A DNA stretch of 64,000 nt from Bacteroidales bacterium (lineage in GTDB: Bacteria; Bacteroidota; Bacteroidia; Bacteroidales; JAFGHD01). The DNA lies in NCBI GenBank assembly GCA_016927695.1, contig JAFGME010000068.1:11580-75579 (forward strand). Direction: 5' to 3'. Made by a program: the position numbers and the translations under genes. Below the pieces are notes generated by a model that was not told where the DNA came from, made no database searches, and was given only the letters and a program-made list of their open reading frames with translations. Numbering within the stretch: position 1 is the stretch's first letter; each line of letters starts with the position of its first letter. Positions 5,735-46,116 of the stretch are shown here, piece after piece.

Positions 5735-5837
5735 TTTGCAGGACATTGATTTGACAAACAAATATAAGGTTAAAACCCATGCAGCAATTTCTTTTTTAAA
5801 ACATTTATTTATCTTTATCAAAATAATTTCGTTTTCG

Positions 5838-9358: not shown

Positions 9359-12300
9359 ATGAAAAATAAGCGGTTGATTTTGGTTATTACAGTAATTGCA
9401 GTACTTGCTGTAATCGTTATTTTTATTTTTTCAGAAAAGATTTTTTTCCGCAAACAGCCACAAAAGATTGATCAGGGCTTCAGGGAATACGTTTCTGCCT
9501 TCACTTCGGGGTTAGTGTCCAATCAAACAAAAATCAGGATTAAGCTTACAACTGCTTATTCGTTGGACATCGAACCAGGTGCGGCGGTGCCGTCCGGGAT
9601 ATTCAGGTTTGACCCTTCCATCAAAGGTACCGCATCGTGGGTTGACTCTCAAACCCTTGAATTTACCCCTGAAAATCCCCTGATTTCAGGCAGGGAGTAT
9701 AAAGGAAGTTTTGAATTAGGTAAGATCATTCATGTGCCTGAAAAATTCCGGTCATTTCCACTCAGTTTTCAGGTGATCAGGCAGGGTTTAAGGGTGACAG
9801 TGAAAGATTTGAAGCCCTACAGGCCTGATTTTCCGGGTGTTTACAAACTTGAGGGCGAGATTCAAACGGCTGATTTTATTGAGGATATCATCATCGAAAA
9901 TATGATCACAGCAGGAAGGGACAATAAAGAGTACTCGCTGTTTTGGTCTCATGATCAGGATAAAAAAATACATCATTTTCAGGTGGATAGTATCCAAAGA
10001 AAAACGGAAGATGACTCCCTTATTCTGAAATGGGACGGACATAGCCACGGGCTGGATATCTCAGGATCGGAAACCATTGAAATTCCGGGAATGAATAACT
10101 TTAAACTGCTGGGCGCCAAAGTGATCCAGATGCCAGGCCAGTACATCCTGCTGACCTTTTCCGATCCGCTACTGCAAAATCAGGATCTCTCAGGGCTTAT
10201 CCGGATTGAAAATGAAGAAAATCTGAAATTCTCTATTGACCTCAACCAGGTGAGTGTTTATCTCTCCTCAAGAATAACAGGGTTAAGGGATATTCATATC
10301 GAGAACACCATCAAAAACTTTACGGGATACAATCTCGGCAACAGTGAGGTGAAAACCATTGCTTTTGAGGCCAACAAACCTGCCGTCAGGTTGATTGGAA
10401 AAGGTGTCATTATTCCGAACAGCACTGGTCTTGTCCTTCCTTTTGAAGCCGTTAACCTGAAATCGGTGGATGTTTCAGTGGTCAGGATATATGAGGACAA
10501 TATCGCCCAGTTCCTTCAGGTGAATGAGATTGATGGCGACTACCAGATGCAAAGGGTGGGGAGGCTCATTGCATCGAAAAAAATTGACCTTGCTGAAGAG
10601 AGCGCCCTCGATTTTGGCCAATGGAATGCCTTTTCAGTAGATATCTCAAAACTGATCAGCGCTGAGCCGGGCGCTATTTACAGGGTTGAATTGAATTTTA
10701 AAAAGAAATACTCACTTTTTCCTTGTGCGGACAGCAATAACACGGAAGAGTCAGAGGAGGAAAACGATGTGTGGGACGATTATTCTGCCTCGCAGCAAAG
10801 TTACTGGGACGGGGTTGACGGGTATTACTATGACGATTATTATTATGGCTATTATGATTATAACTGGGAAGAAAGAGATGATCCCTGCAGCAATTCTTAT
10901 TATTGGAATAAGAAAGTCAGCCGGAACATCCTTGCTTCCGATCTGGGGATCATTGCAAAATCCGGACATGGCAATGAACTTTTTGTGGCTGTTACCGGCA
11001 TCACCACAACAGAACCATTAGGGAACGTAAAAATTGAAGTATTGAACTTTCAGCAACAAAGTATTGGTTCGGGCATAACAGGGAACGATGGAATGGCTGT
11101 AATTCATTGCGAGATGAAGCCATTCCTTCTGGTTGCTTCAAAAGATGAACAGAGGGGATACCTTAAGGTGAACGACGGAAATTCACTTTCATTGAGCAAA
11201 TTTGATGTACAGGGAATGGATGTGAGCGAAGGTATTAAAGGGTTTATTTATGGAGAAAGAGGCGTATGGCGGCCCGGGGATTCTTTATTCCTGACTTTCA
11301 TCCTGGAAGACAGGGAGCATGTGCTGCCTCCTGATCATCCGGTTTCTTTTGAACTCCACAGCCCTGACGGGAAGTTCATGCAAAGGATGGTAAAGGCCAC
11401 AGGCATTGACAACTTTTACAGGTTTGCTACGAAAACCGCGCCGGAAGCGCCCACCGGCGTCTGGCGTGCAGTGGTGAAGGTTGGGGGGAGCTCTTTTACA
11501 CGCATGTTCAGAATAGAAACGGTCAAACCCAACCGTTTAAAAATTAATCTTGATTTCAAAACGAAGCTGCTTGTTGCGGGAACTTCTGACATCACCGGTG
11601 CGCTTTCAGTGAAATGGCTTCATGGAGCCAATGCAGGGAACCTTCAGGCAAAAACAGATTTAACCCTTAAACCGGTAGCCACCAGATTCCCTGCTTTCAA
11701 AGAGTATAACTTCGATGACCCTTCCATCGCATTCTCACCTGCGGAGTTTACAGTGTTTGATGGAAACACTGACCATTCGGGCAATGCACTTGTTAAGGCC
11801 AACGTAACGGTAAACGAAAAGATCCCGGGTATGCTTGAAGCTGTGTTTTTCACAAAGGTTTTCGAAACAGGCGGGGATTTCAGCGTTCATCAGATGAGCA
11901 TACCGTATGCCCCTTACCCGGTTTTTGCCGGTGTTAAAGTACCGAAAGGAGATGTGGCCCGCGGCATGCTACTCACCGATGAGGAGCACAAAATTGAAGT
12001 GGCAACCGTTGATCCGGAAGGCAATAAAGTGTCAGTAAATAATCTGCAGGCCAGGGTTTACAAACTGGAGTGGGAGTGGTGGTGGCACTCAGGAAGCAAT
12101 AACCTGGCATCATATTTCTCCCGTGATTATGTGCAGCCCGTTGTGGAGAAAAATTTTTCAACAACCGATGGATTCGGCTCTTTTTCTTTTGAAATAAAAA
12201 ATCCCGACTGGGGCCGTTACCTTATCCATGTGATGATTCCCGGCGGACACAGCACTGGGCAGATCGTTTACATCGACTGGCCCGGATGGGCTGGAAGGGG

Positions 12301-14947
12301 CCAGCGTGAAAATCCGGGTGGCACTTCCATGCTTTCCTTCACCTCCGACAAGGATGCCTATACGGTTGGGGAAACCGCCAAAGTTACATTTCCCGGTTCT
12401 GAGGGAGGCACAGCCCTGATCAGCCTTGAATCGGGCGACAGGGTGCTGAGTACGCACTGGGTGAAAACACAAAAAGACGAGACCTCTTTTGCTTTTTCCG
12501 TAACCGATGACATGGCTCCGAACATTTATGTGAACATATCCCTTATCCAGCCCCATGCCCAAAGTCTGAACGACCTGCCCATAAGGCAATACGGGGTAAA
12601 ACCGTTGCTGGTGTATAACCCCATGACAAAGCTTGAGCCTGCACTGCTAATGGCTGATGAGCTCAGGCCTGAAAAAGAAGTGAGTATCACCGTGAAGGAA
12701 AAAAAAGGCCATCCAATGACCTTCACGCTTGCCATAGTGGATGAAGGCTTGCTCGATCTGACCGGCTTTAAGACCCCTGATCCCTGGGCCCATTTTTATG
12801 CCCGTGAAGCGCTAAGTGTGAAGACATGGGACCTTTACGACCTGATTCTTGGCGCTTATGGCGCCAGGATCGAAAAGGTGTTTGCCATCGGTGGCGATGC
12901 CGAAACCCTGAAGGTTTCTGACAAAAAGGCTGAAAGATTCAAACCGGTGGTGAAATTTTTCGGTCCGTTCACCATTGACCGGAACGCTGAAAAAAAGATC
13001 AACTTTATCATGCCCAGGTACGTAGGCTCGGTGAGGGCAATGCTGGTCGCAGGTCATGAAGGGGCTTACGGGCAATCGGAAAAAACCGTGCCGGTGAAAA
13101 ATCCGCTGATGATTACGGCCACACTGCCGCGAGTACTCAGCCCTTCGGAAAAAGTCAGGTTACCCGTCACTGTATTTGCAATGAATAACCAGGTTAAGGA
13201 TGTAACGGTAACACTTACGGCGAATGAGTATTTCCAGGTTAACGGGCCGAAAACGCAGCAGGTGCATTTCGATAACATCGGGGAAAAAGATATCATGTTT
13301 GACCTGGCTGTGGCTAAAAAACCGGGAGTGGGTTCGGTACACCTGAAGGCCGTCAGCGGGGGCGAACAGGCCGCATTTGACATAGAACTGGACGTGAGGC
13401 CGCCAAATCCCCCAAAATCGATCACATACAGCAAGTTACTGAATCCGGATGAAGAATGGGAACAAAGTTATGAAGTGTTTGGTATTGAGGGCGCCAATAA
13501 AACAACACTTGAAGTTTCCGGCATGCCCTCCCTTAACCTGGAAAGGAGGCTCAACTATCTGATCCAATATCCTTACGGATGCCTGGAGCAGATCATATCA
13601 TCCGTTTTTCCGCAGCTCTATCTTGAAAAACTGTCTGAAATGACTCAAAATCAACGATCAAGGGTACAGACGAATATTGAACATGGCATTGAAAAGCTTA
13701 AAAGCTACCAATTGCCTGAAGGGGGTTTCTCCTACTGGCCTCAGCATACCGCAGTGAACGACTGGGCAAGCACCTATGCAGGTCATTTCCTGATTGAATG
13801 TAAAAGAGCAGGATATGCCATACCGGGTTCAATGTTCAATAAATGGATCAGTTACCAGCAAAATATGGCGAATCACTGGGCCAGGAATGTAAGTGATTAT
13901 CCCAGAAATGACTTCATCCAGGCTTACAGGCTGTTCACCCTTGCCTTAGCCGACAAACCCGACCTTGGTTCGATGAACCGGCTAAGGGAAGATGGCGCAC
14001 TCTCATTACAGGCCAAATACTTCCTTGCTTATGCCTATCTGCTGGCAGGCAATAAAAAGGCTGCAGAAGTCATCCTGGCAGGAGCAAAAGCAAATATTGA
14101 AGACTATACTGAACTTTCATGGACTTATGGTTCCGGAGTTCGCGACAGGGCAATCGTGCTGAAGACACTTATCACGATGAACAAGATGGATGAAGTTATG
14201 CTGCTTATCGAAAGCATTTCACGATCATTGAGCAGTTACAGCTGGATGAGTACTCAAACAACCGCCTGGTGCCTCATGGCTATGGCAGATGCAGCCGGAC
14301 TCTTCGATCCCAAAGCAAATATTTTTCGTTTCAGATACAAAACCGGTACAGAAAGCCCTGCGGAAGGTGTTTCAGATGGAATCATCAGCAGGATAAACCT
14401 TGAAACCGGCCCCCCGGGCACAAAAACGTTTTGGTTAAAAAACACTTCAACCGTACCCTTCTATGCCGGTTTTTGTGTGGAGGGTGTGCCGTTAACTCCT
14501 GATAATGAACCTGTTGAAAAGAACCTGAAAATCAATGCAGCGTACAAGGATATAAACAACAATGTCATTGATCCCGCACGATTGATACAGGCCACAGACT
14601 TCAGACTTGAGATCACCGTATCCCATCCCGGACTGCTTGATGAATACAAGGAGATGGCCCTCACAACCATGTTCCCTTCCGGTTGGGAAATTATCAATAC
14701 CCGCATGTTTGAAGCAGGCTCCGCTGTGAAGGCGGATGTTCCGTCTTACCAGGATATAAGGGACGACAGAGTGTACACTTTCTTTGATATTCTGCCGGGA
14801 AAAACAAAAACATTTGTCTTCCTTCTCAATGCCTCCTATCTTGGGGAATTTTACCTGCCGGCCATTCAATGCGGGGCCATGTACAGTGACCATATTCAGG
14901 CGAGGATACCGGGAAAAACCGTTAAAATCGTAAGGGCGGGTGAATAA
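9359..14947 (+). CDS. Alpha-2-macroglobulin family protein (bacterial YfhM-type, thioester-containing)
   Basis: The protein is 1862 aa with an N-terminal signal-anchor (LILVITVIAVLAVIVIFIF). It has a long MG-domain region, an intact thioester motif YPYGCLEQ, and an alpha-helical TED-like region after it. It lies directly upstream of pbpC. Confidence 0.9.
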   Translation: MKNKRLILVITVIAVLAVIVIFIFSEKIFFRKQPQKIDQGFREYVSAFTSGLVSNQTKIRIKLTTAYSLDIEPGAAVPSGIFRFDPSIKGTASWVDSQTLEFTPENPLISGREYKGSFELGKIIHVPEKFRSFPLSFQVIRQGLRVTVKDLKPYRPDFPGVYKLEGEIQTADFIEDIIIENMITAGRDNKEYSLFWSHDQDKKIHHFQVDSIQRKTEDDSLILKWDGHSHGLDISGSETIEIPGMNNFKLLGAKVIQMPGQYILLTFSDPLLQNQDLSGLIRIENEENLKFSIDLNQVSVYLSSRITGLRDIHIENTIKNFTGYNLGNSEVKTIAFEANKPAVRLIGKGVIIPNSTGLVLPFEAVNLKSVDVSVVRIYEDNIAQFLQVNEIDGDYQMQRVGRLIASKKIDLAEESALDFGQWNAFSVDISKLISAEPGAIYRVELNFKKKYSLFPCADSNNTEESEEENDVWDDYSASQQSYWDGVDGYYYDDYYYGYYDYNWEERDDPCSNSYYWNKKVSRNILASDLGIIAKSGHGNELFVAVTGITTTEPLGNVKIEVLNFQQQSIGSGITGNDGMAVIHCEMKPFLLVASKDEQRGYLKVNDGNSLSLSKFDVQGMDVSEGIKGFIYGERGVWRPGDSLFLTFILEDREHVLPPDHPVSFELHSPDGKFMQRMVKATGIDNFYRFATKTAPEAPTGVWRAVVKVGGSSFTRMFRIETVKPNRLKINLDFKTKLLVAGTSDITGALSVKWLHGANAGNLQAKTDLTLKPVATRFPAFKEYNFDDPSIAFSPAEFTVFDGNTDHSGNALVKANVTVNEKIPGMLEAVFFTKVFETGGDFSVHQMSIPYAPYPVFAGVKVPKGDVARGMLLTDEEHKIEVATVDPEGNKVSVNNLQARVYKLEWEWWWHSGSNNLASYFSRDYVQPVVEKNFSTTDGFGSFSFEIKNPDWGRYLIHVMIPGGHSTGQIVYIDWPGWAGRGQRENPGGTSMLSFTSDKDAYTVGETAKVTFPGSEGGTALISLESGDRVLSTHWVKTQKDETSFAFSVTDDMAPNIYVNISLIQPHAQSLNDLPIRQYGVKPLLVYNPMTKLEPALLMADELRPEKEVSITVKEKKGHPMTFTLAIVDEGLLDLTGFKTPDPWAHFYAREALSVKTWDLYDLILGAYGARIEKVFAIGGDAETLKVSDKKAERFKPVVKFFGPFTIDRNAEKKINFIMPRYVGSVRAMLVAGHEGAYGQSEKTVPVKNPLMITATLPRVLSPSEKVRLPVTVFAMNNQVKDVTVTLTANEYFQVNGPKTQQVHFDNIGEKDIMFDLAVAKKPGVGSVHLKAVSGGEQAAFDIELDVRPPNPPKSITYSKLLNPDEEWEQSYEVFGIEGANKTTLEVSGMPSLNLERRLNYLIQYPYGCLEQIISSVFPQLYLEKLSEMTQNQRSRVQTNIEHGIEKLKSYQLPEGGFSYWPQHTAVNDWASTYAGHFLIECKRAGYAIPGSMFNKWISYQQNMANHWARNVSDYPRNDFIQAYRLFTLALADKPDLGSMNRLREDGALSLQAKYFLAYAYLLAGNKKAAEVILAGAKANIEDYTELSWTYGSGVRDRAIVLKTLITMNKMDEVMLLIESISRSLSSYSWMSTQTTAWCLMAMADAAGLFDPKANIFRFRYKTGTESPAEGVSDGIISRINLETGPPGTKTFWLKNTSTVPFYAGFCVEGVPLTPDNEPVEKNLKINAAYKDINNNVIDPARLIQATDFRLEITVSHPGLLDEYKEMALTTMFPSGWEIINTRMFEAGSAVKADVPSYQDIRDDRVYTFFDILPGKTKTFVFLLNASYLGEFYLPAIQCGAMYSDHIQARIPGKTVKIVRAGE
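13580..13591 (+). other. Thioester motif CLEQ of the alpha-2-macroglobulin
   Basis: tgc ctg gag cag is in frame and encodes C-L-E-Q inside LIQYPYGCLEQIISS. Confidence 0.85.
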
Positions 14948-17424: not shown

Positions 17425-19032
17425 TCACAGCAATATCACAAGTTTTGCCGTGGATATCAATCCCTCATCCGGGGTAAGTTTTAAAATATAATTTCCGGAC
17501 CGGATGTTTTCAGGGAGAGTTAAAAAATGAATGTGTTTTCCTGCCTCCTGGTTTTCATAAGTCCATTGCATGATCTTCCTTCCTTCGTAATCATATAATC
17601 CAATTTCGACCCTGTCCTTTGTCTGAAGGAAAAATTGGCAGTTTATCTCCCTGTCGCAAACAGGATTCGGAAACACCCTGAACTCCGGCTCTTTCTGTAT
17701 GTTGTTTTCGAAACCGGTGGACAACCCCGAATGGTAACGGGCTATGGCAAAATCAGCATTCTCCTCTGAATTGGTGGCATATCCTGCAGCAATAATTTTT
17801 CCGTCAGGTTGCAGTGCAACAGAATTGATCTGATCGTTTTTGAAACCAGCCTGGCTGATGTCAATCAATGAAACACCATAATAATTTCCAAATTCTGCAT
17901 CCAGTTCACCATTGTCAAGATAGCGGGCAAGGCAAAAATCAAGATCTATTGTATTATGATGATAACCTCCTGCTACAATTTTCCCGTCAGGCTGAATCAA
18001 AACCGATGCAGGGGAATTGGCGCCTATCATATCAGTAACCACCATCCCGTCTTCATCAAAAGTGTTGTCGGGATAACCATTGGGCAGAAAACGGTATATG
18101 GTAAAGTCATAACCTGAAAGACCTTCTATGTTGCCCGACACTACTATTTTATTGTCAACGGCTACAGCCAGATCGGTTCGCGGGAAAATCACCATGTTGC
18201 TTATGGTCAACCCCTGTATCCGGGAGAAGCCTCCGATGCCGAAAGTAACATCAGGGGAGCCATCCATGTTGAAACGGGTAAGTACCAGGGCATCATAATC
18301 TGATGAATTCCCATTGAAGGCGGAAGCACAGGCAAGAATTTTACCCTGATGAATTGCCATACCTTCCGGCATATCGTCTGAACCGTCATTCAAATCGTAA
18401 ACGATGTGGCCGTTGGTGCCAAAGTCAGGATCATGACTGCCATCGGCCTGATAGCGGCACAGGAACATATCAATATCATTGCTACTGCCATAATAGATAT
18501 GACCGCAAACAACAATCTTTCCGTCATTTTGCAGGATGATCGAGTTGGTTGTTTCATTGTGACCAAGATCTGTGATAACAACTCCTGCTGTTCCAAATGA
18601 TTCGTAAAGAACACCATCCGGAGAAAAGCAGGCAATTGCAATATCGCTGTCCGGCCCGGAGCCGGTAACGCCTGCAACGTATATCCTTCCATCGGGGTGG
18701 GTACACATATCATAAGCAATGCTTTCACTTCCTCCCAAAGAAAAACTGACTTTTCCATTGTTGCTGAATGCAGGGTCAGGGGTGCCGTTTTCAAGATATT
18801 GTGCCAGGTTGCAAATTGTGCCACTGAAACCATATCCCGTATAACCGCAAACCAATATCCTGCCATTGCTGTGAACAATAGCTGCCTGTATGTAATTCTC
18901 AGCGTTCTCAAAATCAGTGAACACTACTCCTGATACGCCAAAATCAGGGTCCAGTGTTCCGGGAGACTGACATATTGCGCTGAATGACAGAGATATGAGC
19001 ATAAAAACCGCCAAAAAGCTTTTTCTTTCCAT
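17425..19032 (-). CDS. Delta-60 repeat protein with T9SS C-terminal sorting domain
   Basis: Repeats of roughly 55-60 aa have the form LDP(D/A)FG..G-v...QpDGKIvv.G...df.l.RY (e.g. LDPDFGVSGVV, PDPAFSNNGKV, HDPDFGTNGHI, LDAEFGNYYGV, LQPDGKIIAAGY, FAIARY). The signal peptide MERKSFLAVFMLISLSFSAICQ starts at the ATG at 19032. The CTD is FRVFPNPVCD...GNYILKL. Confidence 0.75.
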   Translation of the reverse strand: MERKSFLAVFMLISLSFSAICQSPGTLDPDFGVSGVVFTDFENAENYIQAAIVHSNGRILVCGYTGYGFSGTICNLAQYLENGTPDPAFSNNGKVSFSLGGSESIAYDMCTHPDGRIYVAGVTGSGPDSDIAIACFSPDGVLYESFGTAGVVITDLGHNETTNSIILQNDGKIVVCGHIYYGSSNDIDMFLCRYQADGSHDPDFGTNGHIVYDLNDGSDDMPEGMAIHQGKILACASAFNGNSSDYDALVLTRFNMDGSPDVTFGIGGFSRIQGLTISNMVIFPRTDLAVAVDNKIVVSGNIEGLSGYDFTIYRFLPNGYPDNTFDEDGMVVTDMIGANSPASVLIQPDGKIVAGGYHHNTIDLDFCLARYLDNGELDAEFGNYYGVSLIDISQAGFKNDQINSVALQPDGKIIAAGYATNSEENADFAIARYHSGLSTGFENNIQKEPEFRVFPNPVCDREINCQFFLQTKDRVEIGLYDYEGRKIMQWTYENQEAGKHIHFLTLPENIRSGNYILKLTPDEGLISTAKLVILL

Positions 19033-19033
19033 T

Positions 19034-20692
19034 TTAAAAATGTTTATATTCAATTACTTCTGTTTTGAGGTCTGCTTTTTCCATCAATCTGTAAACAGGG
19101 TAGGGGAAGAAGCCGCCACCCCACTGGGGTACAAGATAACGGTCGAAGAAATTCCAGGGCAGCAATCCATCATCAGACTGAGGCTCAAGCAAATAAGAAG
19201 CCAGGTTTCCGAGAGGCTGGGATGTAAAAACAATCCTGGTGCCGGCAGGGAAATTACGGTTTTCAACCGTCAACTCACCTTTGATTGTGTTGCAGTAGTG
19301 TCCCTGGTAAAGACGGGAAGCCCCATTCAATTCATTCATTCTAAACCCTTCTACATTCAGCCTGGTATCTTCTGTAAGTATTTCCATTGCAATACCATGG
19401 CTTGAAATATTTTCAAGCACTTCCGGATCAGGTACCACGATGAGATAGGCATAGGGAACGGCAATATTTTTCACAGGAATGTAATCTGCAATATAAGGTA
19501 CTGTAACCGTTCTTTTCCTGTCGCTCTGTTTATAACGCCAATAGCCCCTTACCCCTGGAATCGTATCCGCCTCAATGGCCTTGATGGTGATGGGATCAGG
19601 TGTCGGAACGCCCCTGTATTCAATGGCAAATGAGTCGGTTGCCTGTGCCCCGGCAAACCGGTTGATCAGCCGGAGATCACTTTCTGCCAAAAGGGTTTTT
19701 ATCTCATCACGGTGCTCTGCCGCATATTCAAGAATCGACCAAAGGAGCTGATAACAACCATTCACCCTGGTTTGAAAATCTGCATATACATAATTTTCAT
19801 TGAGTATGGCCAGCCTGTTTCTCACGCCGATATAGTTGACAAGATAGCGGGGTTCTGAAGCATAGGAAATCCAGCCGCTGTCAGGGTTGAGTCGGTCAAT
19901 GAACTCACCGTAAAATATATTTTCCACATTTCTATTGGCAAGGAGCATTTCGTGAACCTCCGGCATCATTCTGTCACGCATATAGTGGATCAGATTTCTG
20001 TCGCCATTGGGATTCATCATCCAGGTAAAAGTAACCGGCTCCTCGTGATATGAACCGTTGGTGGTATGGCAATCTACGGTCACTGCCGGATCATAACGGT
20101 TAAACACCTGAGTGACAACACCTTTTAGCTCAGGGGTTTCCAGCTTAATGGCGTCCCTGTTCATATCCAGAAACTGGCCGTTATGTCTTACCCCGACACC
20201 ATTGACAGGCCCAACCTGGTTTGTTCTGTTTTCAGGGCTGATCCTGTCGTTGCCATCTGCATTCAGTATCGGACAAATCAGCAATACAATGTTATCAAGT
20301 ATTTCAGGCCTGGGATCCCTGACAAGGTCACGTGCTAGCATCAGGGAGGCCTCTTTCCCTTCCACTTCGCCTGCATGAATATTGGCCTGAAGGTAAACTA
20401 CAATCCTGTCATCGCTCTCCAAATCCTTTGGATCAGCCGGCATGGGATCTGCGATTAAAAGAAGCGGGATATCTTTTCCCTCAATGGAAGTGGCAAGGGT
20501 TTCGACCCTGACCAGGTTTGTGGCTGAAGCAAGCTCTTTCACGAATGCCATTACATCAGCATGGGTGGAGGTGGAGGTATAGCCCGATGATTCTGCTGTG
20601 GTTTTAAGTGTTGATTGTGCCAGAAGGCCAATATTTGCTGCCAATGACAGTGTTAACAAAGTAAAAGTCATTTTTTTTAGTTGCATAATCAA
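19034..20692 (-). CDS. M14-family zinc carboxypeptidase, secreted
   Basis: The signal peptide is MTFTLLTLSLAANIGLLAQ. The zinc motif is NIHAGEVEGKEA (HxxE), with a downstream VDCHTTNGS (third His). PILNADGND is typical of M14. The stop lies 1 nt from the start of the downstream delta-60 gene. Confidence 0.8.
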   Translation of the reverse strand: MIMQLKKMTFTLLTLSLAANIGLLAQSTLKTTAESSGYTSTSTHADVMAFVKELASATNLVRVETLATSIEGKDIPLLLIADPMPADPKDLESDDRIVVYLQANIHAGEVEGKEASLMLARDLVRDPRPEILDNIVLLICPILNADGNDRISPENRTNQVGPVNGVGVRHNGQFLDMNRDAIKLETPELKGVVTQVFNRYDPAVTVDCHTTNGSYHEEPVTFTWMMNPNGDRNLIHYMRDRMMPEVHEMLLANRNVENIFYGEFIDRLNPDSGWISYASEPRYLVNYIGVRNRLAILNENYVYADFQTRVNGCYQLLWSILEYAAEHRDEIKTLLAESDLRLINRFAGAQATDSFAIEYRGVPTPDPITIKAIEADTIPGVRGYWRYKQSDRKRTVTVPYIADYIPVKNIAVPYAYLIVVPDPEVLENISSHGIAMEILTEDTRLNVEGFRMNELNGASRLYQGHYCNTIKGELTVENRNFPAGTRIVFTSQPLGNLASYLLEPQSDDGLLPWNFFDRYLVPQWGGGFFPYPVYRLMEKADLKTEVIEYKHF

Positions 20693-20774: not shown

Positions 20775-22499
20775 ATGAAAACAGCCTGCTCAAACAAAAT
20801 GAAAAAGGCCTTAAAGAAGGCATTATACACTGGTGTTATGCTGAGTTTATGTATTCCGGCACTGGGGCAGCACAAACCCGGATCTTCGCAGAAATTGCTG
20901 GAAGTGATGGATGGTCCGTATATCCATTCACCCATTGAAAACCAGGCAACCTCTCCGGCTTACAGGTATTCTTCCACCGGATTCTTTACAGTGCAGGTAA
21001 ATGTTAATGCACAGGGTGAGAACATCGTGGGAGATGCGGCCAATGAACCTTCCATCACACACAATCCAAATAATCCTGATCAAATGGCCATCGGCTGGAG
21101 GCATTTCGAAACCATCACCAACAGTTTCAGGCAGGCGGGGGTTGCATATACCACAGATGCCGGTCAAAACTGGACTTTCCCGGGCGTAATCGACCCCGGG
21201 ATTTTCAGGTCAGATCCAGTCCTCGACTGGGATACCGAAGGCAACTTTTATTACAACAGCCTTACCAGCGATAACGGCAATTACACCTGCCAGGTATTCA
21301 GGTCGTATGACGGCGGGGCCACCTGGGATGGAGGGACATACGCACAGGGGGGCGATAAACAATGGATGGCCATTGACAAAACCGGCGGCATCGGAAACGG
21401 GAACATTTATGCATTCTGGACGTCATACTACAGCATCTGCAGCCCCGATTTTTTTACCAGGTCTGTTGATGGCGGAAGTACTTTCGAAAATTGCACATAC
21501 ATACCCGGAGAACCTTACTGGGGAACAACTATGGTAAATAAAAACGGCGACCTTTATGTCTGCGGCACACAAAACAACAATTTCATGTTCGCCCGTTCAA
21601 CCAACGCCCATGACCCGGCGCAATCGCCCACATGGGATCTGGTCAGCTATGTTGACCTTGACGGGGAAATTACAGGTTTCGGCGGTTACCAGTGCCCCAA
21701 TCCCAGCGGTTTATTAGGCCAGACCATTATTTCGGCCGATTCAAGCGGCGGACCGTTTGACGGGTATATATATATCCTTTGTTCTGTGGACCGTTATTCC
21801 AATAATGATCCGCTCGATGTAATGTTAACCAGAAGTACGGATGGCGGGGCAACCTGGAGCGACCCCATCCGCGTGAACGATGACCCGGCCAATAACGCCT
21901 ACCAATGGTTCGGAACCATGTCGGTAGCCCCTGACGGAAGAATTGATGTGGTATGGCTTGATAACCGCGATAATCCCGGTTCGGTATGGTCGGCGCTTTA
22001 TTATTCATTTTCTTTAGACGGAGGAGAAACATGGAGTGCAAATGAAAAACTTTCTGAATCCTTCAACCCCCACATCGGATGGCCGCAACAAGACAAAATG
22101 GGAGATTATTTTGATATGTATTCCGATGAAACAGGAGCCCATTTAGCCTGGGCCAACACTTTCAACGGGGAACAGGATGTTTACTACGCCCACATCACCC
22201 CATCCATTACAGGGATATCTCTCATAAAAAGCAATCCGTCGGTTTCTCTCTCTCAAAACTTTCCCAATCCATTCAGTTATAAAACCTCAATTAAGTTTTC
22301 CCTGTCTGAAAAAATGAAGGTCACAATCCGTGTTTATGACATGACAGGCAGAGAGGTGATCACATTGCTGAATGAAATCAGGGAAGCCGGGCCGGGGCAG
22401 GTTGAGTTTTATACAGGAGACCTGAAGAACGGAATGTATTACTACACTCTTAGCGCCGGGCAATCCAGCGAAACCCGCAAGCTGATGATCAGCAGATAA
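20775..22499 (+). CDS. BNR/Asp-box (sialidase-fold-like) protein with T9SS C-terminal sorting domain
   Basis: Asp-boxes are TTDAGQNW, SYDGGATW, SVDGGSTF, STDGGATW and SLDGGETW. A signal peptide is present. The CTD is LSQNFPNPFSYKTSIKF...GMYYYTL. Confidence 0.75.
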   Translation: MKTACSNKMKKALKKALYTGVMLSLCIPALGQHKPGSSQKLLEVMDGPYIHSPIENQATSPAYRYSSTGFFTVQVNVNAQGENIVGDAANEPSITHNPNNPDQMAIGWRHFETITNSFRQAGVAYTTDAGQNWTFPGVIDPGIFRSDPVLDWDTEGNFYYNSLTSDNGNYTCQVFRSYDGGATWDGGTYAQGGDKQWMAIDKTGGIGNGNIYAFWTSYYSICSPDFFTRSVDGGSTFENCTYIPGEPYWGTTMVNKNGDLYVCGTQNNNFMFARSTNAHDPAQSPTWDLVSYVDLDGEITGFGGYQCPNPSGLLGQTIISADSSGGPFDGYIYILCSVDRYSNNDPLDVMLTRSTDGGATWSDPIRVNDDPANNAYQWFGTMSVAPDGRIDVVWLDNRDNPGSVWSALYYSFSLDGGETWSANEKLSESFNPHIGWPQQDKMGDYFDMYSDETGAHLAWANTFNGEQDVYYAHITPSITGISLIKSNPSVSLSQNFPNPFSYKTSIKFSLSEKMKVTIRVYDMTGREVITLLNEIREAGPGQVEFYTGDLKNGMYYYTLSAGQSSETRKLMISR

Positions 22500-22702: not shown

Positions 22703-23785
22703 ATGGAACCGAATTCCCTGATTCCCACGCCCGACTCCATTCCCGCCCCCGCATGGATATTCATCCTGCTGGAGCAGCTTTTGTTCCTGCTGCATATCCT
22801 TCTGATCAATGCCGTACTTGGAGGAATGTTGGTGATGTTATTCAGAAAATCAAAAAATACGGGAGAAAATCATGAAACTGATTTCAGGAAAAATGCCGCA
22901 AAAAAACTGCCGGTCATGATTGCCCTTGGAATCAATCTTGCCATTCCACCTCTTTTATTTCTTCAGGTGGTTTTCGGCCATCTCTTTTATTCCAGCTCGG
23001 TATTGATGGCAACTTACTGGATACTGATCATCCCATTGTTGATTGTGGCTTATTACGGAGCCTATATTCATTCGGTTAAATTGTTTTCCTGCCCTTTTTT
23101 TTCAAGGGCTTCTCTGGCAATATCCATTCTCATTATCCTGTATATCGGTTTCATGCTTGTCAATAACAATTCCCTGATGGAGCAGCCTGAAAAGTGGACT
23201 GCATACTTTGAGAACAGGAACGGCAGTATTCTGAACCTGAACGACCAGGCCCTCTGGCCCCGTTATATTCATTTCATCGCTGCCTCCCTTGCCATCGGAA
23301 GCATTTTCTTTGCACTGATGCATCACCTGAGGGCGAAAAAAGGGGAGGAGGGCTCAGAACAAAAGGTCACTTTCTTTCTGCGCATCTTTGCTGTTGTCAC
23401 GGCCATTCAGCTTGCCGTGGGTTTCTGGTACCTGCTTGCCATACCTTCGGAATTCATCCCTGCATTTATGGGCAAAGACCTTGTGAGTACGATGGTTCTT
23501 ATGGCCGGCATTGGTGCGGGAATTGGCGCCATGATATCCGGGTTTTTGGGAAAATTCAAAGCGACCGTCGCACACCTGCTTCTCACGATGATCGCCATGA
23601 TCATTAGCCGGTATAACCTGAGAATGATGTACCTCGACGACAATTTCCGCTTCAGCGGGCTTGAACTGGCGCCTCAATACGGATTGCTTGCACTGTTCCT
23701 GCTGATTCTGCTGATTGGCATTGCTTTAATCTTGTATATGTTAAAAATCGGTTTCAACAAATCTGAAAGGAGGGTTGAACCATGA
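22703..23785 (+). CDS. Polytopic membrane protein (about 9 TM), partner subunit of the downstream bd-like/cytochrome c protein
   Basis: The 360 aa protein shows about nine hydrophobic segments by eye. TM1 is LLFLLHILLINAVLGGML, a His followed by LGG that echoes TM1 of the next gene. Its stop overlaps the next start (ATGA at 23782-23785). Confidence 0.6.
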   Translation: MEPNSLIPTPDSIPAPAWIFILLEQLLFLLHILLINAVLGGMLVMLFRKSKNTGENHETDFRKNAAKKLPVMIALGINLAIPPLLFLQVVFGHLFYSSSVLMATYWILIIPLLIVAYYGAYIHSVKLFSCPFFSRASLAISILIILYIGFMLVNNNSLMEQPEKWTAYFENRNGSILNLNDQALWPRYIHFIAASLAIGSIFFALMHHLRAKKGEEGSEQKVTFFLRIFAVVTAIQLAVGFWYLLAIPSEFIPAFMGKDLVSTMVLMAGIGAGIGAMISGFLGKFKATVAHLLLTMIAMIISRYNLRMMYLDDNFRFSGLELAPQYGLLALFLLILLIGIALILYMLKIGFNKSERRVEP

Positions 23786-26463
23786 ATTATCCGATATGGG
23801 AACTCTATGGCCTGAACAGCGGGACGCTGGTTGCCATCATTGCCGTTACGCATGCTTTCATTGCCCACCTGGCCGTCGGCGGAGGATTGTTTTTGTGGTT
23901 AACGGATTTAAAAAGTGTGAGGGATAATGACAGCGATATCCGATTGTATGTTCAAAAGCATACCTGGTTTTTCCTTTTGCTCACCATGGTTTTCGGAGGG
24001 GTTTCAGGAGTCGGGATTTGGTTCATCATTGCCCTTGCCAGCCCTGCTGCCACCTCATCCCTGATACATAATTTCGTTTTTGGCTGGGCTATCGAATGGG
24101 TGTTTTTCATCGGTGAAATAGTAGCGCTGCTGGTCTATCATTACAGGTTTGAGAAGATGAATTCCAAACACCGGCTTCAGGTCGCATTTCTCTATTTCCT
24201 TTTTGCCTGGCTTAGTATGGTGATAATCAATGGAATACTGGCTTTTATGCTCACCCCGGGCAAATGGCTCGATACTGGGTACTTCTGGCATGGATTTTTC
24301 AATCCCACCTATTTTTCATCCTTATTGTTCAGGACTGCTGCCGCTACCATGATTGCAGGACTTTTCGGCTACGTTACCGTAGTGTTTTTAAACGAAAGCG
24401 AATTCAGAAGAAAAATGCTGCGGTATTGTACAAAATGGCTACTCTTTCCCGTTCCTGTGATTATTTTAGCTGGGATCTGGTACTATTATTCAGTTCCGGA
24501 TTCCATCCGATTTACAACCTTTAGTTTAAATGCCCAGTCGCAACTTATTGTTATTCTGTTTATTATTACATCAGTATTGGTTTTTGTAACAGGAGCATTT
24601 TTCTCTCTTAAAATGAATCCGAAATATCAACGGGTCATGGTGTTTGTTTTTCTGCTTACCGGCCTGGGCTGGTACGGAAGTTTTGAATACATGAGGGAGT
24701 ACGCACGCAAACCGTACATCATACACAGCTATATGTATTCAACCTCAGTGCTGAAAAACGATGTGGAGATGCTTAACAGTGAAGGCATGCTGGCTCACGC
24801 CAAATGGACGGAAATAAAAGAAATCAATATTGATAATGTGCTGCGGGCGGGCAGGGAATTGTTTAATATACAATGCCTGGCATGCCATACCATCGGCGGG
24901 GTCAAAAATGATATCATTAAGAAAACAAAACATTTCACTTACATGGGAATGATCTCACATCTTTACGGGCAGGGAAAAGTGCTCAATTACATGCCTGAGT
25001 TTGTGGGCACACCTCAGGAAATGGAAGCGCTGGCGGCTTTCATCATCCGGGATCTCAACAAAAAGCAAATGGTGACGGAACCGTCTCATTATGAACCTGT
25101 TCCGGCGGACAGGGAAATACCTCCCTTTGATAAAATCAAAGACGATTACGTGCTGTTGGCATGGAATGACCTTGGAATGCACTGTATTTCCGACTGCGAC
25201 CCCTGGTTTATCCTCCTTCCTCCGGCCAATACATTAGAAGCCCAGCTCATCAAAAGAGGGCCTTCACCATCTCTCATTACCGAAGGGGTGGAGTTGCGAT
25301 ATAAAGTGGAAGCGGGTTTTGAAAACCCCTCATCTCATGTTCGCTTCTGGGATTTTGCGGAGAGTTATTTCGGTATAAAACCTGAAAAAAACATTGGCCT
25401 TTCAGGCAAAGGCATGAGGGGCACATTTGATTTTAATGCCGACAGGAACAGCTTTATTGCTGAAATGATTCCGGTAGTTCCTTATAAGGATGACGGCGCT
25501 TTTAACCCATACCCGCAATTCATTGTTGAGGCTGTTGACATCGAAACCAATGAAACGTTGATGACAACCAGGGTGGTGGCGCCGGTATCCACAGAAATGG
25601 GGTGCCGCAACTGCCATGGCGGAGGATGGCGGGTAAATGATATTTCAGGAGTGGCAGATGAAACCGCTATAAACATCCTTAAAGCCCATGATAGGCTAAA
25701 CAATACCGACCTGTATGCAACTGCATTGCAGGGAAAGCCCCAACTATGCCAGAGTTGCCATGCCGACCCGGCAATAGGCGCTGAAGGAAAACCCGCGCAT
25801 AATAACTTTTCGGCGGCAATGCACGGGTGGCATGCCAATTACATGTATGTTGAAGGGGGAAATGCCTGCGCTATGTGCCATCCGGCTTCCCAAAAAGGCA
25901 ATACACGCTGCAACAGAGGCATACACCCTCAATTGGGATACAACTGCACCAACTGCCACGGAACATTGGGCGACCATGCGGCAGGATTGCTGAATGCACA
26001 AACTGAAACGGCAAGCAGCCGGAGATTACTGGCCAATCTCAAAACTCAATATGTGGCCACAACAGCGGATGTTTTTCCAAGGATTCCCTGGGTGCAACAG
26101 CCCGATTGTTTAGGATGTCATGAAAATTTTGAGAAACCGGCAGCGGGATTTAACGCATTCAACAAATGGAACAGCGATTTTTCGGGATTATACCGGATAA
26201 GGACCGGCGATGCAGGCATAAGGTGTGCAGCCTGCCATAATTCCACCCATTCGGAATACCCTGCCCGAAATGCATTCGGACGAAACCTGGATAATGCACA
26301 ACCCATGCAATATAACGGAACTCCATTGCCAATTGGATCTGAATTTTCATGTGAGGTTTGCCATAAACAAAAAATGGAAGAATCGGTTCACCATCCCAAT
26401 ATGGAAAGGATGTTCAGAAATATCAGGTTACCCGTCAAAGAAGGCCTTATTCCTGAGAGATAG
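23782..26463 (+). CDS. Fusion protein: cytochrome bd subunit I (CydA)-like membrane domain + monohaem class-I cytochrome c + heptahaem cytochrome c domain
   Basis: Residues 1-330 show about 8 hydrophobic segments, including IAVTHAFIAHLAVGGGLF and GWAIEWVFFIGEIVALLVYHY. These resemble the CydA TM1 His and the FFxE region. There are eight CXXCH motifs: CLACH (nt 24874-24888, with downstream YMPEF), CRNCH, CQSCH, CAMCH, CTNCH, CLGCH, CAACH and CEVCH (nt 26350-26364). Confidence 0.7.
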   Translation: MNYPIWELYGLNSGTLVAIIAVTHAFIAHLAVGGGLFLWLTDLKSVRDNDSDIRLYVQKHTWFFLLLTMVFGGVSGVGIWFIIALASPAATSSLIHNFVFGWAIEWVFFIGEIVALLVYHYRFEKMNSKHRLQVAFLYFLFAWLSMVIINGILAFMLTPGKWLDTGYFWHGFFNPTYFSSLLFRTAAATMIAGLFGYVTVVFLNESEFRRKMLRYCTKWLLFPVPVIILAGIWYYYSVPDSIRFTTFSLNAQSQLIVILFIITSVLVFVTGAFFSLKMNPKYQRVMVFVFLLTGLGWYGSFEYMREYARKPYIIHSYMYSTSVLKNDVEMLNSEGMLAHAKWTEIKEINIDNVLRAGRELFNIQCLACHTIGGVKNDIIKKTKHFTYMGMISHLYGQGKVLNYMPEFVGTPQEMEALAAFIIRDLNKKQMVTEPSHYEPVPADREIPPFDKIKDDYVLLAWNDLGMHCISDCDPWFILLPPANTLEAQLIKRGPSPSLITEGVELRYKVEAGFENPSSHVRFWDFAESYFGIKPEKNIGLSGKGMRGTFDFNADRNSFIAEMIPVVPYKDDGAFNPYPQFIVEAVDIETNETLMTTRVVAPVSTEMGCRNCHGGGWRVNDISGVADETAINILKAHDRLNNTDLYATALQGKPQLCQSCHADPAIGAEGKPAHNNFSAAMHGWHANYMYVEGGNACAMCHPASQKGNTRCNRGIHPQLGYNCTNCHGTLGDHAAGLLNAQTETASSRRLLANLKTQYVATTADVFPRIPWVQQPDCLGCHENFEKPAAGFNAFNKWNSDFSGLYRIRTGDAGIRCAACHNSTHSEYPARNAFGRNLDNAQPMQYNGTPLPIGSEFSCEVCHKQKMEESVHHPNMERMFRNIRLPVKEGLIPER

Positions 26464-26551: not shown

Positions 26552-26575
26552 AGAGGCGCTTGCTGAAACGCCTCT
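26552..26575. terminator. Hairpin between convergent genes (possible bidirectional terminator)
   Basis: AGAGGCG-cttgctgaaa-CGCCTCT forms a 7-bp stem in the 121-nt gap between the cytochrome gene (+) and the TPR gene (-). It is flanked by A-rich sequence on one side and TC-rich sequence on the other. Confidence 0.4.
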
Positions 26576-42723: not shown

Positions 42724-42764
42724 TGTGTTGAATTTTATGTTTAAGTAATTAATTTTATATAGTT

Positions 42765-43868: not shown

Positions 43869-43894
43869 AATTGCAACACATTCATTGGCTTGTT

Positions 43895-45163: not shown

Positions 45164-45200
45164 CAGAAAACGGCAATCCTTTCACAAAAAACAATACACA

Positions 45201-46088: not shown

Positions 46089-46116
46089 ATTATGGATTAT
46101 CCATTGTGATGCTCCA

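Follow-up and report, generated by a model that had tools for sequence, protein, structure and literature searches.

A Bacteroidales gene pair assigned to the haem-c-carrying OR-C1 branch of the cytochrome bd superfamily

Two overlapping genes in a Bacteroidales contig raise the question of what a membrane domain resembling cytochrome bd subunit I does when it is fused to an eight-haem cytochrome c and encoded beside a second, haem-c-free membrane protein. The genes lie in a window of 64,000 nucleotides (contig JAFGME010000068.1 of assembly GCA_016927695.1, positions 11,580 to 75,579, forward strand), and the two reading frames of 360 and 893 codons described by an initial annotation, which share an ATGA, are present as claimed. 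The evidence collected here makes it very likely that the pair belongs to OR-C1, the branch of the cytochrome bd superfamily that carries haem c, and the explanation that best covers the whole is, with somewhat better than even confidence, that the two proteins are the membrane subunits of a bd-type, haem-c-fed OR-C1 enzyme.

Gene arrangement and conservation of the pair

The ATGA overlap suggests translational coupling of both genes, and the AGGAGG sequence noted earlier 8 nt ahead of the second start is indeed found there, with a GGAGG-like sequence at the equivalent place in three of four homologous loci from other phyla (Table 1). Downstream, a 7-bp GC-rich hairpin between the convergent 893-aa and TPR genes is likely to act as a bidirectional terminator. 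The reported absence of adjacent ccm and Fe-S genes holds over about 10 kb around the pair, where respiratory genes are likewise missing. The same contig carries genes for O2-dependent dioxygenases, which indicates that the organism meets O2.

Table 1. Coordinates of the gene pair and its features in the window
Feature	Position	Strand	Basis
360-aa haem-c-free partner gene (OR-C1b type)	22703..23785	+	ORF
H31 codon, partner TM1	22793..22795	+	invariant in 131 diverse representatives and in 121 sequences
H190 codon, partner TM5	23270..23272	+	present in 130/131 representatives
M299...R303...R307 codons, partner TM8 (corresponds to CydA TM8)	23597..23623	+	conservation
AGGAGG, Shine-Dalgarno-like, inside 3' end of 360-aa gene	23768..23773	+	8 nt before second ATG
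ATGA start/stop overlap of the two genes	23782..23785	+	read from sequence
893-aa OR-C1a-type gene: CydA-like 8-TM domain and periplasmic eight-haem cytochrome c	23782..26463	+	ORF
CydA-like membrane domain, aa 1-310, TM1-TM8	23782..24711	+	Foldseek, PF01654 in homologues, hmmsearch
H24 codon, TM1	23851..23853	+	invariant; aligned with 5doq_A H21; same number for OR-C1a in Table S6
E105...E112 codons, TM3	24094..24117	+	invariant; pairs with E101/E108 of 5doq_A; numbered identically in Table S6
F183-R184 codons, TM5	24328..24333	+	profile alignments; Table S6 lists F183 for OR-C1a
FEYMREYARKPY, aa 301-312, periplasmic end of TM8	24682..24717	+	alignments and conservation
Class I (c6/CcoP-like) monohaem domain, C365LACH and distal ligand M404	24838..25056	+	Pfam Cytochrome_CBB3, cytochrome c6 alignment
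Haem-free beta-rich periplasmic domain, aa 426-600	25057..25581	+	model beta strands, conservation
Heptahaem domain, CXXCH at 608, 656, 696, 722, 776, 815, 857	25582..26460	+	motifs and Pfam
7-bp GC-rich hairpin (AGAGGCG...CGCCTCT), putative terminator	26552..26575	.	between convergent 893-aa and TPR genes; read from sequence

More than 3690 homologues of the fusion protein were found, 56-82% identical among the matches listed. Of the 120 listed, three are shorter (681-849 aa, two of them named 'partial') and all others have the full length of 866-901 aa. The fusion is real, since the pair, with an overlap of 1-4 nt, is kept in all eight loci compared, whose flanks are unrelated (Bacteroidota relatives, Ignavibacteriota, Calditrichota, Nitrospirota, 'Deltaproteobacteria' and Zhuqueibacterota). 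Host organisms of the family are mostly anaerobes, many of them strict.

Membrane subunits and family identity

The AlphaFold (AF2) model of the 893-aa protein (pLDDT 90.4) contains 8 TM helices in residues 13-309, the number counted earlier, and its best 20 Foldseek matches in the PDB are all cytochrome bd subunits, CydA chains taking ranks 1-10 (probability 1.00; 5doq_A, E 5.9e-8), as a CydA-like domain would lead one to expect. In Pfam, PF01654 (Cyt_bd_oxida_I) is matched by neither the 893-aa nor the 360-aa protein and is matched above the gathering cut-off by 8 of 24 close homologues of the former, about 60% identical, over residues 17-195/231, covering TM1-TM5/6. The family profile found Geobacillus CydA 5doq_A as its best PDB sequence (hmmsearch, E 0.0017), aligning H24 with H21, E105 with E101, E112 with E108 and Y119/Y121 with Y115/Y117, and, in a second collinear stretch, the ExGRQPW motif with E306/R309/P311. 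Against proteobacterial CydA, profile comparisons gave no significant match.

On these alignments, H24 corresponds to the residue that serves as axial ligand at the di-haem active site (His19 in E. coli CydA, His21 in Geobacillus), and E105 and E112, spaced by six residues, correspond to Glu99 and Glu107 of the CydA proton channel, which bears out the likening of the TM1 and TM3 helices to CydA. H24, E105, E112, Y119, Y121, E306, R309 and P311 are invariant across 75 homologues, and S145 is likewise invariant in the family. Where CydA has His186, the initial annotation had put an arginine; the lack of histidine stands, but profile alignments and the literature place F183 there, not R184, and the haem b558 ligand is thus absent. 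The Q-loop is absent from both subunits, whose TM6-TM7 loops are short in the models. Because the b558 His and the Q-loop are both missing, the protein is not a canonical quinol oxidase, as had been argued. Moreover, K+R counts fit an N-out topology for both proteins, and the haem-c part lies on the periplasmic side, as proposed, given the 8 TM helices and the positive-inside rule.

At the end of TM8, FEYMREYARKPY seems to be the counterpart of the CydA GWxxxExGRQPW motif, with E306 corresponding to E445 and R309 to R448. E302, R305, E306, R309 and P311 are invariant in homologues, three individually non-significant alignments agree on this register, and 22 of 85 real CydA sequences align at this site against 2 of 1785 decoys, none of them individually significant.

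The 360-aa partner, whose family comprises 1950 representatives at 50% identity, finds no match in Pfam or NCBIfam. Its AF2 model (pLDDT 83) has 9 TM helices, close to the earlier count, and its best 17 Foldseek PDB matches are all CydA or CydB (TM-score up to 0.73, for 5doq_A). Comparison of 121 diverse OR-C1b sequences with the 893-aa membrane domain (hhalign, 96.8%, E 2.3e-10, 273 columns) indicates that the partner is a paralogue of that domain with the same predicted cytochrome bd subunit fold, which, together with its position next to the fusion gene in every locus examined, agrees with a CydB/CydA'-like partner. In this comparison H31, the CydA His19 equivalent, pairs with H24 of the fusion, R303 with R305, R307 with R309, and H190 with F183, which puts H190 where CydA has its haem b558 ligand His186; a local hhalign also places H190 on E. 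coli H186, at a non-significant level. Conservation of M299 (98%), R303 (99%) and R307 (97%) was observed among 131 representatives only 27-50% identical.

The OR-C clade associated with c-type cytochromes, which the initial annotation had mentioned, exists and fits exactly. OR-C1a and OR-C1b were defined, by phylogenomics only, by Murali, Gennis and Hemp in 2021 (bioRxiv 10.1101/2021.01.16.426971), OR-C1a as an 8-TM protein with C-terminal haem c and up to 8 CXXCH, with the signature H24, E105, E112, S145, Y119, Y121, V77, W80 and F183 (Table S6 of that paper), all of which the 893-aa protein carries at identical numbers. For Draconibacterium orientale (Prolixibacteraceae) and for Thermodesulfovibrio, the same authors list haemless OR-C1b 'hypothetical proteins' beside an OR-C1a with 8 haems. 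The 893-aa protein is therefore an OR-C1a and the 360-aa protein an OR-C1b, another member of a pair already named and not a new kind. The locus and the published family have in common the 8-TM CydA-like subunit with a periplasmic C-terminal extension of eight CXXCH, the lack of b558 ligands and Q-loop, and the adjacent haem-free paralogue. They differ in that position 131, called poorly conserved there, is Arg here (invariant in the clade) and His in their reference, the modelled partner has 9 TM helices and not the 8 stated, and the 8-haem form, assigned there to Desulfovibrionia, is found here on a Bacteroidota contig. E445 is scored absent from OR-C1a in the published table, whereas the conserved E306/R309 motif aligns with it here. 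The apparent retention of an E445/R448-like motif in the fusion goes beyond the 2021 paper, as does the partner's retention of invariant H31, H190 (at the b558 His position) and M299.

Both subunit folds and the pseudo-symmetric two-subunit layout are like those of CydAB (E. coli bd-I 6RKO, Geobacillus 5DOQ), with the TM1 His ligand, two TM3 Glu, a TM4 Ser and probably the TM8 Glu/Arg motif in common and a Glu spacing of the Geobacillus (qOR3) type. Unlike CydAB, the catalytic subunit is without His186/Met393 (haem b558), Q-loop and TM9, electrons would enter through eight covalently bound haems c and not from quinol, the partner has His where CydA has H19 and H186, and no CydX-like small gene was seen. 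In CydAA' (qOR4a/qOR4b) of Caldivirga maquilingensis the second subunit is, as here, a CydA paralogue and not CydB, without the Glu channel but with the His19 equivalent; CydAA', however, is still a quinol oxidase, working through subunit I, and contains no haem c. Periplasmic haem c wired to a membrane haem protein is a design shared with cbb3 CcoP and caa3 subunit II, which belong to haem-c-fed oxidases, and with the multihaem wires CbcL, ImcH, CymA/NrfH and Qrc, which sit on quinone-reactive anchors, but their membrane folds are unrelated to bd and, to our knowledge, none has a bd-type core.

Periplasmic haem-c and beta-rich parts

All eight CXXCH motifs lie at the codons claimed, at residues 365 (CLACH, nt 24874), 608, 656, 696, 722, 776, 815 and 857; shuffling the protein 20,000 times gave a mean of 0.016 and a maximum of 2, and their 16 Cys and 8 His are all invariant in 75 homologues. 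Residues 354-421 match the class I family Cytochrome_CBB3 (Pfam, E 2.6e-7), the CcoP-type family, and M404, within the YMPEF proposed to hold the Met ligand, aligns with that of cytochrome c6. The haem-free stretch that follows, as described, covers residues 426-600, which have no Pfam match; it is modelled with pLDDT above 90, contains WNDLGMHCISDCDPW at 461-475, and conserves W461, M466-H467-C468 and D471. The heptahaem domain matches Cytochrome_C7, MtrC/MtrF domain II/IV and c3_2 in Pfam and has eight further invariant His. The lone cysteines C468 (97%) and C710 (99%) are also conserved. M404 and the eight His make nine conserved candidate distal ligands for eight haems c, a number that would fit a wire, not a catalytic haem.

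Proposed function and competing explanations

The 893-aa subunit retains CydA TM1-TM8, including H24, E105 and E112 of the O2-reducing four-helix bundle. The haem b558 ligands, Q-loop and TM9 are gone, and in their place stand eight periplasmic haems c, one of class I and seven in a separate domain, with a beta-rich domain between them. The 360-aa subunit, a paralogue with 9 TM helices and no Glu channel, stands in for CydB. The most likely function would be that of a cytochrome-c-fed bd-type reductase of O2 (or NO/H2O2), a mechanism to which about an even chance is given. In line with the initial annotation, the literature search returned no purification or assay of any OR-C enzyme, and O2 reduction is therefore deduced from conserved residues only. 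Electrons would come from a periplasmic donor, either soluble cytochromes c or a different redox protein, and enter the mostly bis-His heptahaem wire, which would pass them to the His/Met haem c, located where b558 would otherwise feed in, and from there to a retained high-spin haem pair with H24 and probably E306 as ligands, where O2 (possibly also NO or H2O2) would be reduced. Protons would come from the cytoplasm via E112/E105, and the reaction would therefore be electrogenic, as in cytochrome bd.

Several observations weigh against an oxidase. The equivalence of E306 and E445 depends on concordant, individually weak alignments, eight haems exceed the need of simple electron entry, haem content is not readable from sequence, and a plain CydB-like scaffold does not explain the partner's invariant H31, H190 and M299. 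Additionally, the one-haem OR-C1a of Sulfurospirillum (SMUL_0150) is about 40-fold more abundant in anoxic cells adapted to pyruvate fermentation (PMC6242987), which, like the many strict-anaerobe hosts, counts against this reading.

The same data lend something to a quinone-pool-coupled electron conduit, considered rather unlikely, in which electrons would move between menaquinol/menaquinone and the bd-like heterodimer via haem(s) b of the partner (H31, H190/M299), and on to or back from the eight-haem wire, as in CymA/NrfH, CbcL/ImcH or Qrc, serving periplasmic or extracellular acceptors or low-potential donors. The 97-100% conservation of H31, H190, M299, R303 and R307 in so divergent a set of partners, the mostly anaerobic hosts, the anoxic induction of SMUL_0150, and an array with seven of eight haems in a c3/c7/MtrC-like arrangement, typical of membrane-leaving wires, all favour it, but neither subunit has a Q-loop, terminal reductase or outer-membrane conduit genes are unlinked in 8/8 loci, and a mere anchor would have no need of invariant H24, E105, E112, S145 and E306.

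Less probable still is a membrane-anchored periplasmic multihaem enzyme, such as a reductase of nitrogen or sulfur oxyanions, whose active site would lie among the haems c and the beta domain, the bd-like domain providing electrons or serving only as an anchor. His/Cys haem ligation and Cys-based active sites occur in sulfur-converting cytochromes, and the confidently folded beta domain with its M466-H467-C468 and D471, as well as the lone C468 and C710, could be read in this way; nevertheless, the 893-aa protein has no CXXCK or other variant haem motif, NrfA, HAO, OTR and MccA-type families are unmatched in Pfam, NCBIfam and PDB sequences, and the invariant His/Met suffice for eight six-coordinate haems. 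One-haem OR-C1a proteins do without the whole haem-c/beta extension, which is thus an add-on to a self-sufficient core.

An assembly or frameshift artefact, or an unrelated membrane family such as NrfD/PsrC, is hardly credible, for although a direct PF01654 match is wanting and PsrC (2vpw_C) stands at rank 18 for the 360-aa model, its query TM-score is only 0.40, the best structural matches are all cytochrome bd subunits, more than 100 full-length homologues come from many phyla and independent assemblies, and the two-gene layout is the same in all eight loci. Of the outcomes that the initial annotation had set against itself, these two did not occur; as to the third, an already characterised enzyme family, OR-C1 is indeed named, but on the basis of phylogenomics and not of biochemistry. 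If the pair does work as a cytochrome-c-fed bd-type reductase, its mostly anaerobic hosts would use it to scavenge O2 or to respire under micro-aerobic conditions.

The gene pair and its surroundings

The two genes are a further member of OR-C1, the haem-c-bearing branch of the cytochrome bd superfamily named in 2021, a published family defined by phylogenomics, and their architecture is not new. The ORF coordinates confirm the overlapping frames of 360 and 893 aa read in the initial annotation, namely a membrane protein without haem c (the partner, OR-C1b type) and, directly downstream, a CydA-like membrane domain joined to a periplasmic eight-haem cytochrome c (the fusion protein, OR-C1a type). 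The AGGAGG sequence reported 8 nt 5' of the second ATG is present, and a GGAGG-like sequence precedes the fusion-gene start in the window and in three of the four other loci compared, from different phyla (L001, L004 and L005, in which it lies just upstream of position 8001). This sequence sits inside the coding 3' end of the partner gene, so that a coding constraint and a ribosome-binding role are alike possible.

Among 5.8 billion proteins searched, the fusion protein has more than 3690 relatives. Among the 120 relatives listed, which share 56-82% identity with the window protein, all but three are full length (866-901 aa); the three shorter ones have 681-849 aa, and two of these are named 'partial'. 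The lineages include Prolixibacteraceae/Bacteroidales, Melioribacteraceae, Calditrichia, KSB1, Marinimicrobia, 'Deltaproteobacteria', Thermodesulfovibrio and Zhuqueibacterota. The partner matches no Pfam or NCBIfam family, and a profile search of a 50%-identity library gave 1950 representatives of its family at E <= 0.001, about 350-380 aa long in most of those listed. In eight of eight homologous loci from different lineages, a 355-360-aa gene lies directly 5' of an 885-893-aa gene, with an overlap of 1-4 nt and with unrelated flanking genes. The pair is thus a self-contained two-gene module, and these loci, together with the full-length relatives across lineages, rule out an assembly or frameshift artefact as the origin of the fusion.

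The surroundings of the pair in the window comprise T9SS cargo proteins, an M14 peptidase, a TPR protein, GyrA and ClpB, and the survey of these genes agrees with the earlier remark that no respiratory, Fe-S or cytochrome-maturation genes adjoin the pair. The T9SS C-terminal sorting domain (Por_Secre_tail) is present in four large secreted proteins, among them BNR/sortilin-type, CotH plus lamin-tail and DUF5122 beta-propeller proteins, and confirms that the DNA comes from Bacteroidota. A very large ORF of 1862 aa is also found. Between the convergent fusion and TPR genes there is a hairpin with a 7-bp GC-rich stem (AGAGGCG-N10-CGCCTCT) flanked by A-rich and T-rich runs, which looks like a shared bidirectional terminator. 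Farther along, a gene cluster for O2-dependent aromatic amino-acid breakdown encodes homogentisate 1,2-dioxygenase-like and 4-hydroxyphenylpyruvate dioxygenase-like proteins, fumarylacetoacetase, a flavin reductase and a biopterin-dependent hydroxylase, and suggests at least occasional use of O2 by the organism.

The homologous loci show further neighbours. A conserved PsiE-family (PF06146) membrane protein of 144-154 aa is encoded directly 5' of the pair in three of the eight homologous loci, including L086, a syntenic relative with 79% identity. The three PsiE proteins are closely alike and may serve the module as an accessory subunit or factor; tblastn finds no trace of psiE in the window, which rules out a remnant there. 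Sensing or chemotaxis genes follow the pair in two unrelated loci, with an ODP-type di-iron protein and an MCP-signal protein in the Thermodesulfovibrio locus, and CheR, CheB and a large sensor kinase in the Melioribacteraceae locus. Their position may be a coincidence.

Coordinates of the gene pair, its protein domains and neighbouring features (L-numbers are homologous loci from other genomes)
Feature	Position	Strand	Basis or remark
Partner gene, 360 aa	window 22703..23785	+	ORF
AGGAGG	window 23768-23773		upstream of second ATG
Fusion gene, 893 aa	window 23782..26463	+	ORF; ATGA common to both ORFs
Partner TM helices	aa 17-47, 56-79, 81-125, 131-160, 184-212, 218-246, 260-281, 285-311, 326-352		AlphaFold2 model
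Class I cytochrome c (fusion protein)	aa 353-425		Pfam Cytochrome_CBB3; cytochrome c6 alignment, M404 on Met ligand
Haem-free beta-rich domain (fusion protein)	aa 426-600		confident model; no family match; conserved W461, M466-H467-C468, D471
Seven-haem part (fusion protein)	aa 601-893		seven CXXCH; weak c3/c7/MtrC-type matches (Pfam)
Hairpin	window 26552-26575		looks like a terminator
Por_Secre_tail proteins	window 3263-5821, 5736-8852, 17425-19053, 20775-22499
Very large ORF	window 9359-14947	+
Aromatic amino-acid breakdown cluster	window 41566-47862
PsiE-family genes	L001:6453-6917; L004:6487-6921; L086:5980-6414	strand of the pair
Sensing/chemotaxis genes	L002:10734-12408; L004:10821-16331		3' of the pair

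Cytochrome bd fold of the two membrane subunits

The AlphaFold2 model of the fusion protein, built with 75 homologues, is confident (pLDDT 90.4, pTM 0.88) and has eight TM helices within residues 13-309. A fold search of the PDB with this model gives cytochrome bd subunits in all of the best 20 places, and CydA chains lead the list (5doq_A, E 5.9e-8, target TM-score 0.61; 9r2g_A, target TM-score 0.69). Direct Pfam and NCBIfam scans of the fusion protein return haem-c families only. The window protein does not match the CydA family PF01654 (Cyt_bd_oxida_I) at E<=1, whereas 8 of 24 homologues with 57-66% identity to it do (best E 5.3e-12; several at 27-40 bits against a gathering cutoff of 26.2), over residues 17-195/231 (TM1-TM5/6) and profile positions 6-191/231 of 418; the sequence link to this family is therefore transitive. 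Moreover, among PDB sequences the full-length family profile A2 scores best with Geobacillus CydA (5doq_A; E 0.0017) and aligns H24 with H21, E105/E112 with E101/E108 and Y119/Y121 with Y115/Y117; H24, E105 and E112 are invariant in 75 homologues. No CydA was found among PDB sequences with the N-terminal-domain profile A1, a single homologue or the partner profile A5. The fold matches, the PF01654 matches of homologues and the A2 alignment support the CydA-like membrane domain that had been proposed.

A second collinear stretch of the A2 alignment pairs FEY-RE-ARKPY (301-312) with agwYLAEVGRQPW of 5doq_A. The register that sets E306 against E445 and R309 against R448 is found there and in two hhalign runs against E. 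coli CydA, which singly are not significant. E306, R309 and P311 are invariant, and in a local control the TM8 motif part of the HMM was aligned by 22 of 85 real CydA sequences and by 2 of 1785 composition-matched decoys. Since each alignment is weak on its own, E306 is kept as the probable, not proven, equivalent of Glu445, the second active-site haem ligand. Whole-sequence scores of the OR-C1a and OR-C1b HMMs in local hmmsearch did not separate real CydA from block-shuffled or reversed decoys. With hhalign, probabilities stayed below 7% against E. coli CydA or CydB alone and likewise with CydA alignments of 5 and 85 sequences. The larger alignment combined PDB chains with a scan of genome contigs that gave only proteobacterial qOR1 CydA, a set too narrow to bridge the distance.

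The fusion protein differs from canonical quinol-oxidizing cytochrome bd in the loss of the quinol and haem b558 module. The position of His186, the haem b558 ligand of CydA, has no His, as the initial annotation had tentatively read, but the residue there is F183 and not the Arg184 of its alignment. Where TM7 begins, the family conserves neither a Met nor a His that would be equivalent to Met393, the TM6-TM7 connection of the model consists of residues 238-239 and so leaves no Q-loop, and the ninth TM helix is missing. Counts of K+R are compatible with both termini outside (N-out, C-out), and in this topology all haems c lie in the periplasm; the model and these counts uphold the earlier topology of eight TM helices followed by a periplasmic haem-c part.

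The partner model (pLDDT 83, pTM 0.83) has nine TM helices, and the best 17 matches of its fold search in the PDB are all CydA or CydB chains, with TM-scores up to 0.73. PsrC appears only at rank 18 (query TM-score 0.40) and is absent from the fusion-protein matches; an NrfD/PsrC-like reading of the pair, which the initial annotation had named as one refutation, is ruled out by this distance and by the lack of any such Pfam or NCBIfam match. Over 273 columns covering TM1-TM8, a partner profile of 121 diverse members can be aligned to the fusion protein's membrane domain (probability 96.8%, E 2.3e-10; 93% with a shallower profile), so that the two subunits are paralogues. Model, fold matches, paralogy and adjacency thus bear out the nine-TM, CydB/CydA'-like partner that was suggested earlier. 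The channel-Glu positions are occupied in the partner by Y105 and I109, while H31 aligns with H24/His19 and H190 with F183/His186. Because H31, H190, M299, R303 and R307 are kept at 97-100% in sequences 27-50% identical to the partner, we infer that it may itself bind haem, unlike CydB.

The periplasmic haem-c part

The eight CXXCH motifs of the fusion protein begin at residues 365, 608, 656, 696, 722, 776, 815 and 857, exactly where the initial annotation had located them, and 20,000 shufflings of the protein gave a mean of 0.016 motifs and a maximum of 2. All their Cys and His residues are invariant in 75 homologues, as are eight further His (636, 681, 684, 715, 732, 823, 870 and 871). Together with M404 these would suffice to make each of the eight haems six-coordinate, and the fusion protein has no variant haem motifs such as CXXCK; both points favour an electron wire over a catalytic haem for this part of the protein. 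The opposite reading, a catalytic periplasmic cytochrome, is accordingly improbable.

Two lone Cys outside the motifs are conserved among the 75 homologues, C468 (25183-25185) at 97% and C710 (25909-25911) at 99%. The former belongs to M466-H467-C468 in the haem-free beta domain and the latter to T708-x-C710-x-R712..H715 in the multihaem domain, and they could form a disulfide, ligate haem or bind a metal. As C472 is only 31% conserved, the HCISDC stretch of the beta domain was ruled out as a CuA- or cupredoxin-type site.

Relation to OR-C1, proposed electron path and significance

Murali, Gennis and Hemp (bioRxiv 10.1101/2021.01.16.426971) divided the bd superfamily into qOR, OR-C and OR-N. 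Their OR-C1a is homologous to CydA, has eight TM helices and continues at the C-terminus into a periplasmic extension with haem c; its gene adjoins that of the paralogue OR-C1b. This description corresponds to the OR-C clade named in the initial annotation. Of the ten signature residues in their Table S6 (H24, E105, E112, S145, H131, Y119, Y121, V77, W80, and F183 at the His186 position), nine are identical in the fusion protein under the same numbers; the exception is Arg instead of His at position 131, which the authors term poorly conserved. Their table marks the Glu445/Arg448 motif as absent in OR-C1a. The eight TM helices and eight CXXCH motifs also agree, the latter being the reported maximum of the subfamily. 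In Table S7 of the same work, 8-haem OR-C1a proteins are entered for many Desulfovibrionia, Thermodesulfovibrio, Thermodesulfobacterium and Draconibacterium orientale (Prolixibacteraceae), and the authors' OR-C1b list includes haemless 'hypothetical proteins' with gene numbers consecutive to those of 8-haem OR-C1a proteins. The published members from T. thiophilus and Prolixibacteraceae correspond to homologues P0103 and P0014 of our search. The partner agrees with OR-C1b as an adjacent CydA paralogue without the Glu99/Glu107 channel; its nine modelled TM helices, against the eight stated in the paper, are a minor discrepancy that may come from different prediction methods.

The family is therefore published, but its definition is phylogenomic. 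Our literature search found no biochemical, structural or genetic characterization of any OR-C enzyme, O2-reduction assays included, and searching by OR-C locus tags gave no functional data except one proteomics mention: in Sulfurospirillum adapted to fermentation, the one-haem OR-C1a protein SMUL_0150 was about 40-fold more abundant (PMC6242987).

The analysis supports the initial interpretation of the pair. With the bd fold in both subunits and the equivalents of His19 and Glu99/Glu107 kept in the fusion protein, periplasmic donors would deliver electrons to the heptahaem array, from which they would pass through the His/Met haem c, acting as feeder in place of b558, to a di-haem site in TM1-4/TM8, where O2 (or NO/H2O2) would be reduced with cytoplasmic protons. 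Because one-haem OR-C1a proteins exist, the class I haem may be the core input, and the beta domain and seven haems an add-on for low-potential donors.

Two other arrangements give the partner a larger part, and both seem unlikely to us. According to the first, each of the two subunits of a bd-type heterodimer would bind haem b, and the eight-haem domain would span and link them in a branched or bidirectional circuit. The partner sites would use H31, H190 (at the b558 His position) and M299/R303/R307; electrons could, for example, run from quinol or a low-potential periplasmic donor along the haem c wire to the di-haem site, and in strict anaerobes the physiological oxidant could be something other than O2. 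We know of no counterpart of such an arrangement among characterized respiratory enzymes. The second, a conduit coupled to quinone through haems of the partner, would draw on the same conserved residues, is similarly doubtful and has to be set beside a fusion protein devoid of a Q-loop.

Oxygen reductases fall into only three superfamilies, one of which is cytochrome bd, and to our knowledge the biochemistry of cytochrome bd comes so far from the quinol-oxidizing branch only. OR-C1 is very widespread, and its hosts include sulfate reducers, Thermodesulfovibrio, Calditrichota, Ignavibacteriota and anaerobic Bacteroidota. The analysis yields residues that can be tested, namely H24, E105, E112 and E306/R309 of the fusion protein and H31, H190 and M299 of the partner, and points to cultured organisms in which to do so. 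If the pair is indeed a cytochrome-c-fed bd oxidase, it would represent a major unrecognized route of O2 scavenging in 'anaerobes', and the way in which metagenomes are read for aerobic potential would change.
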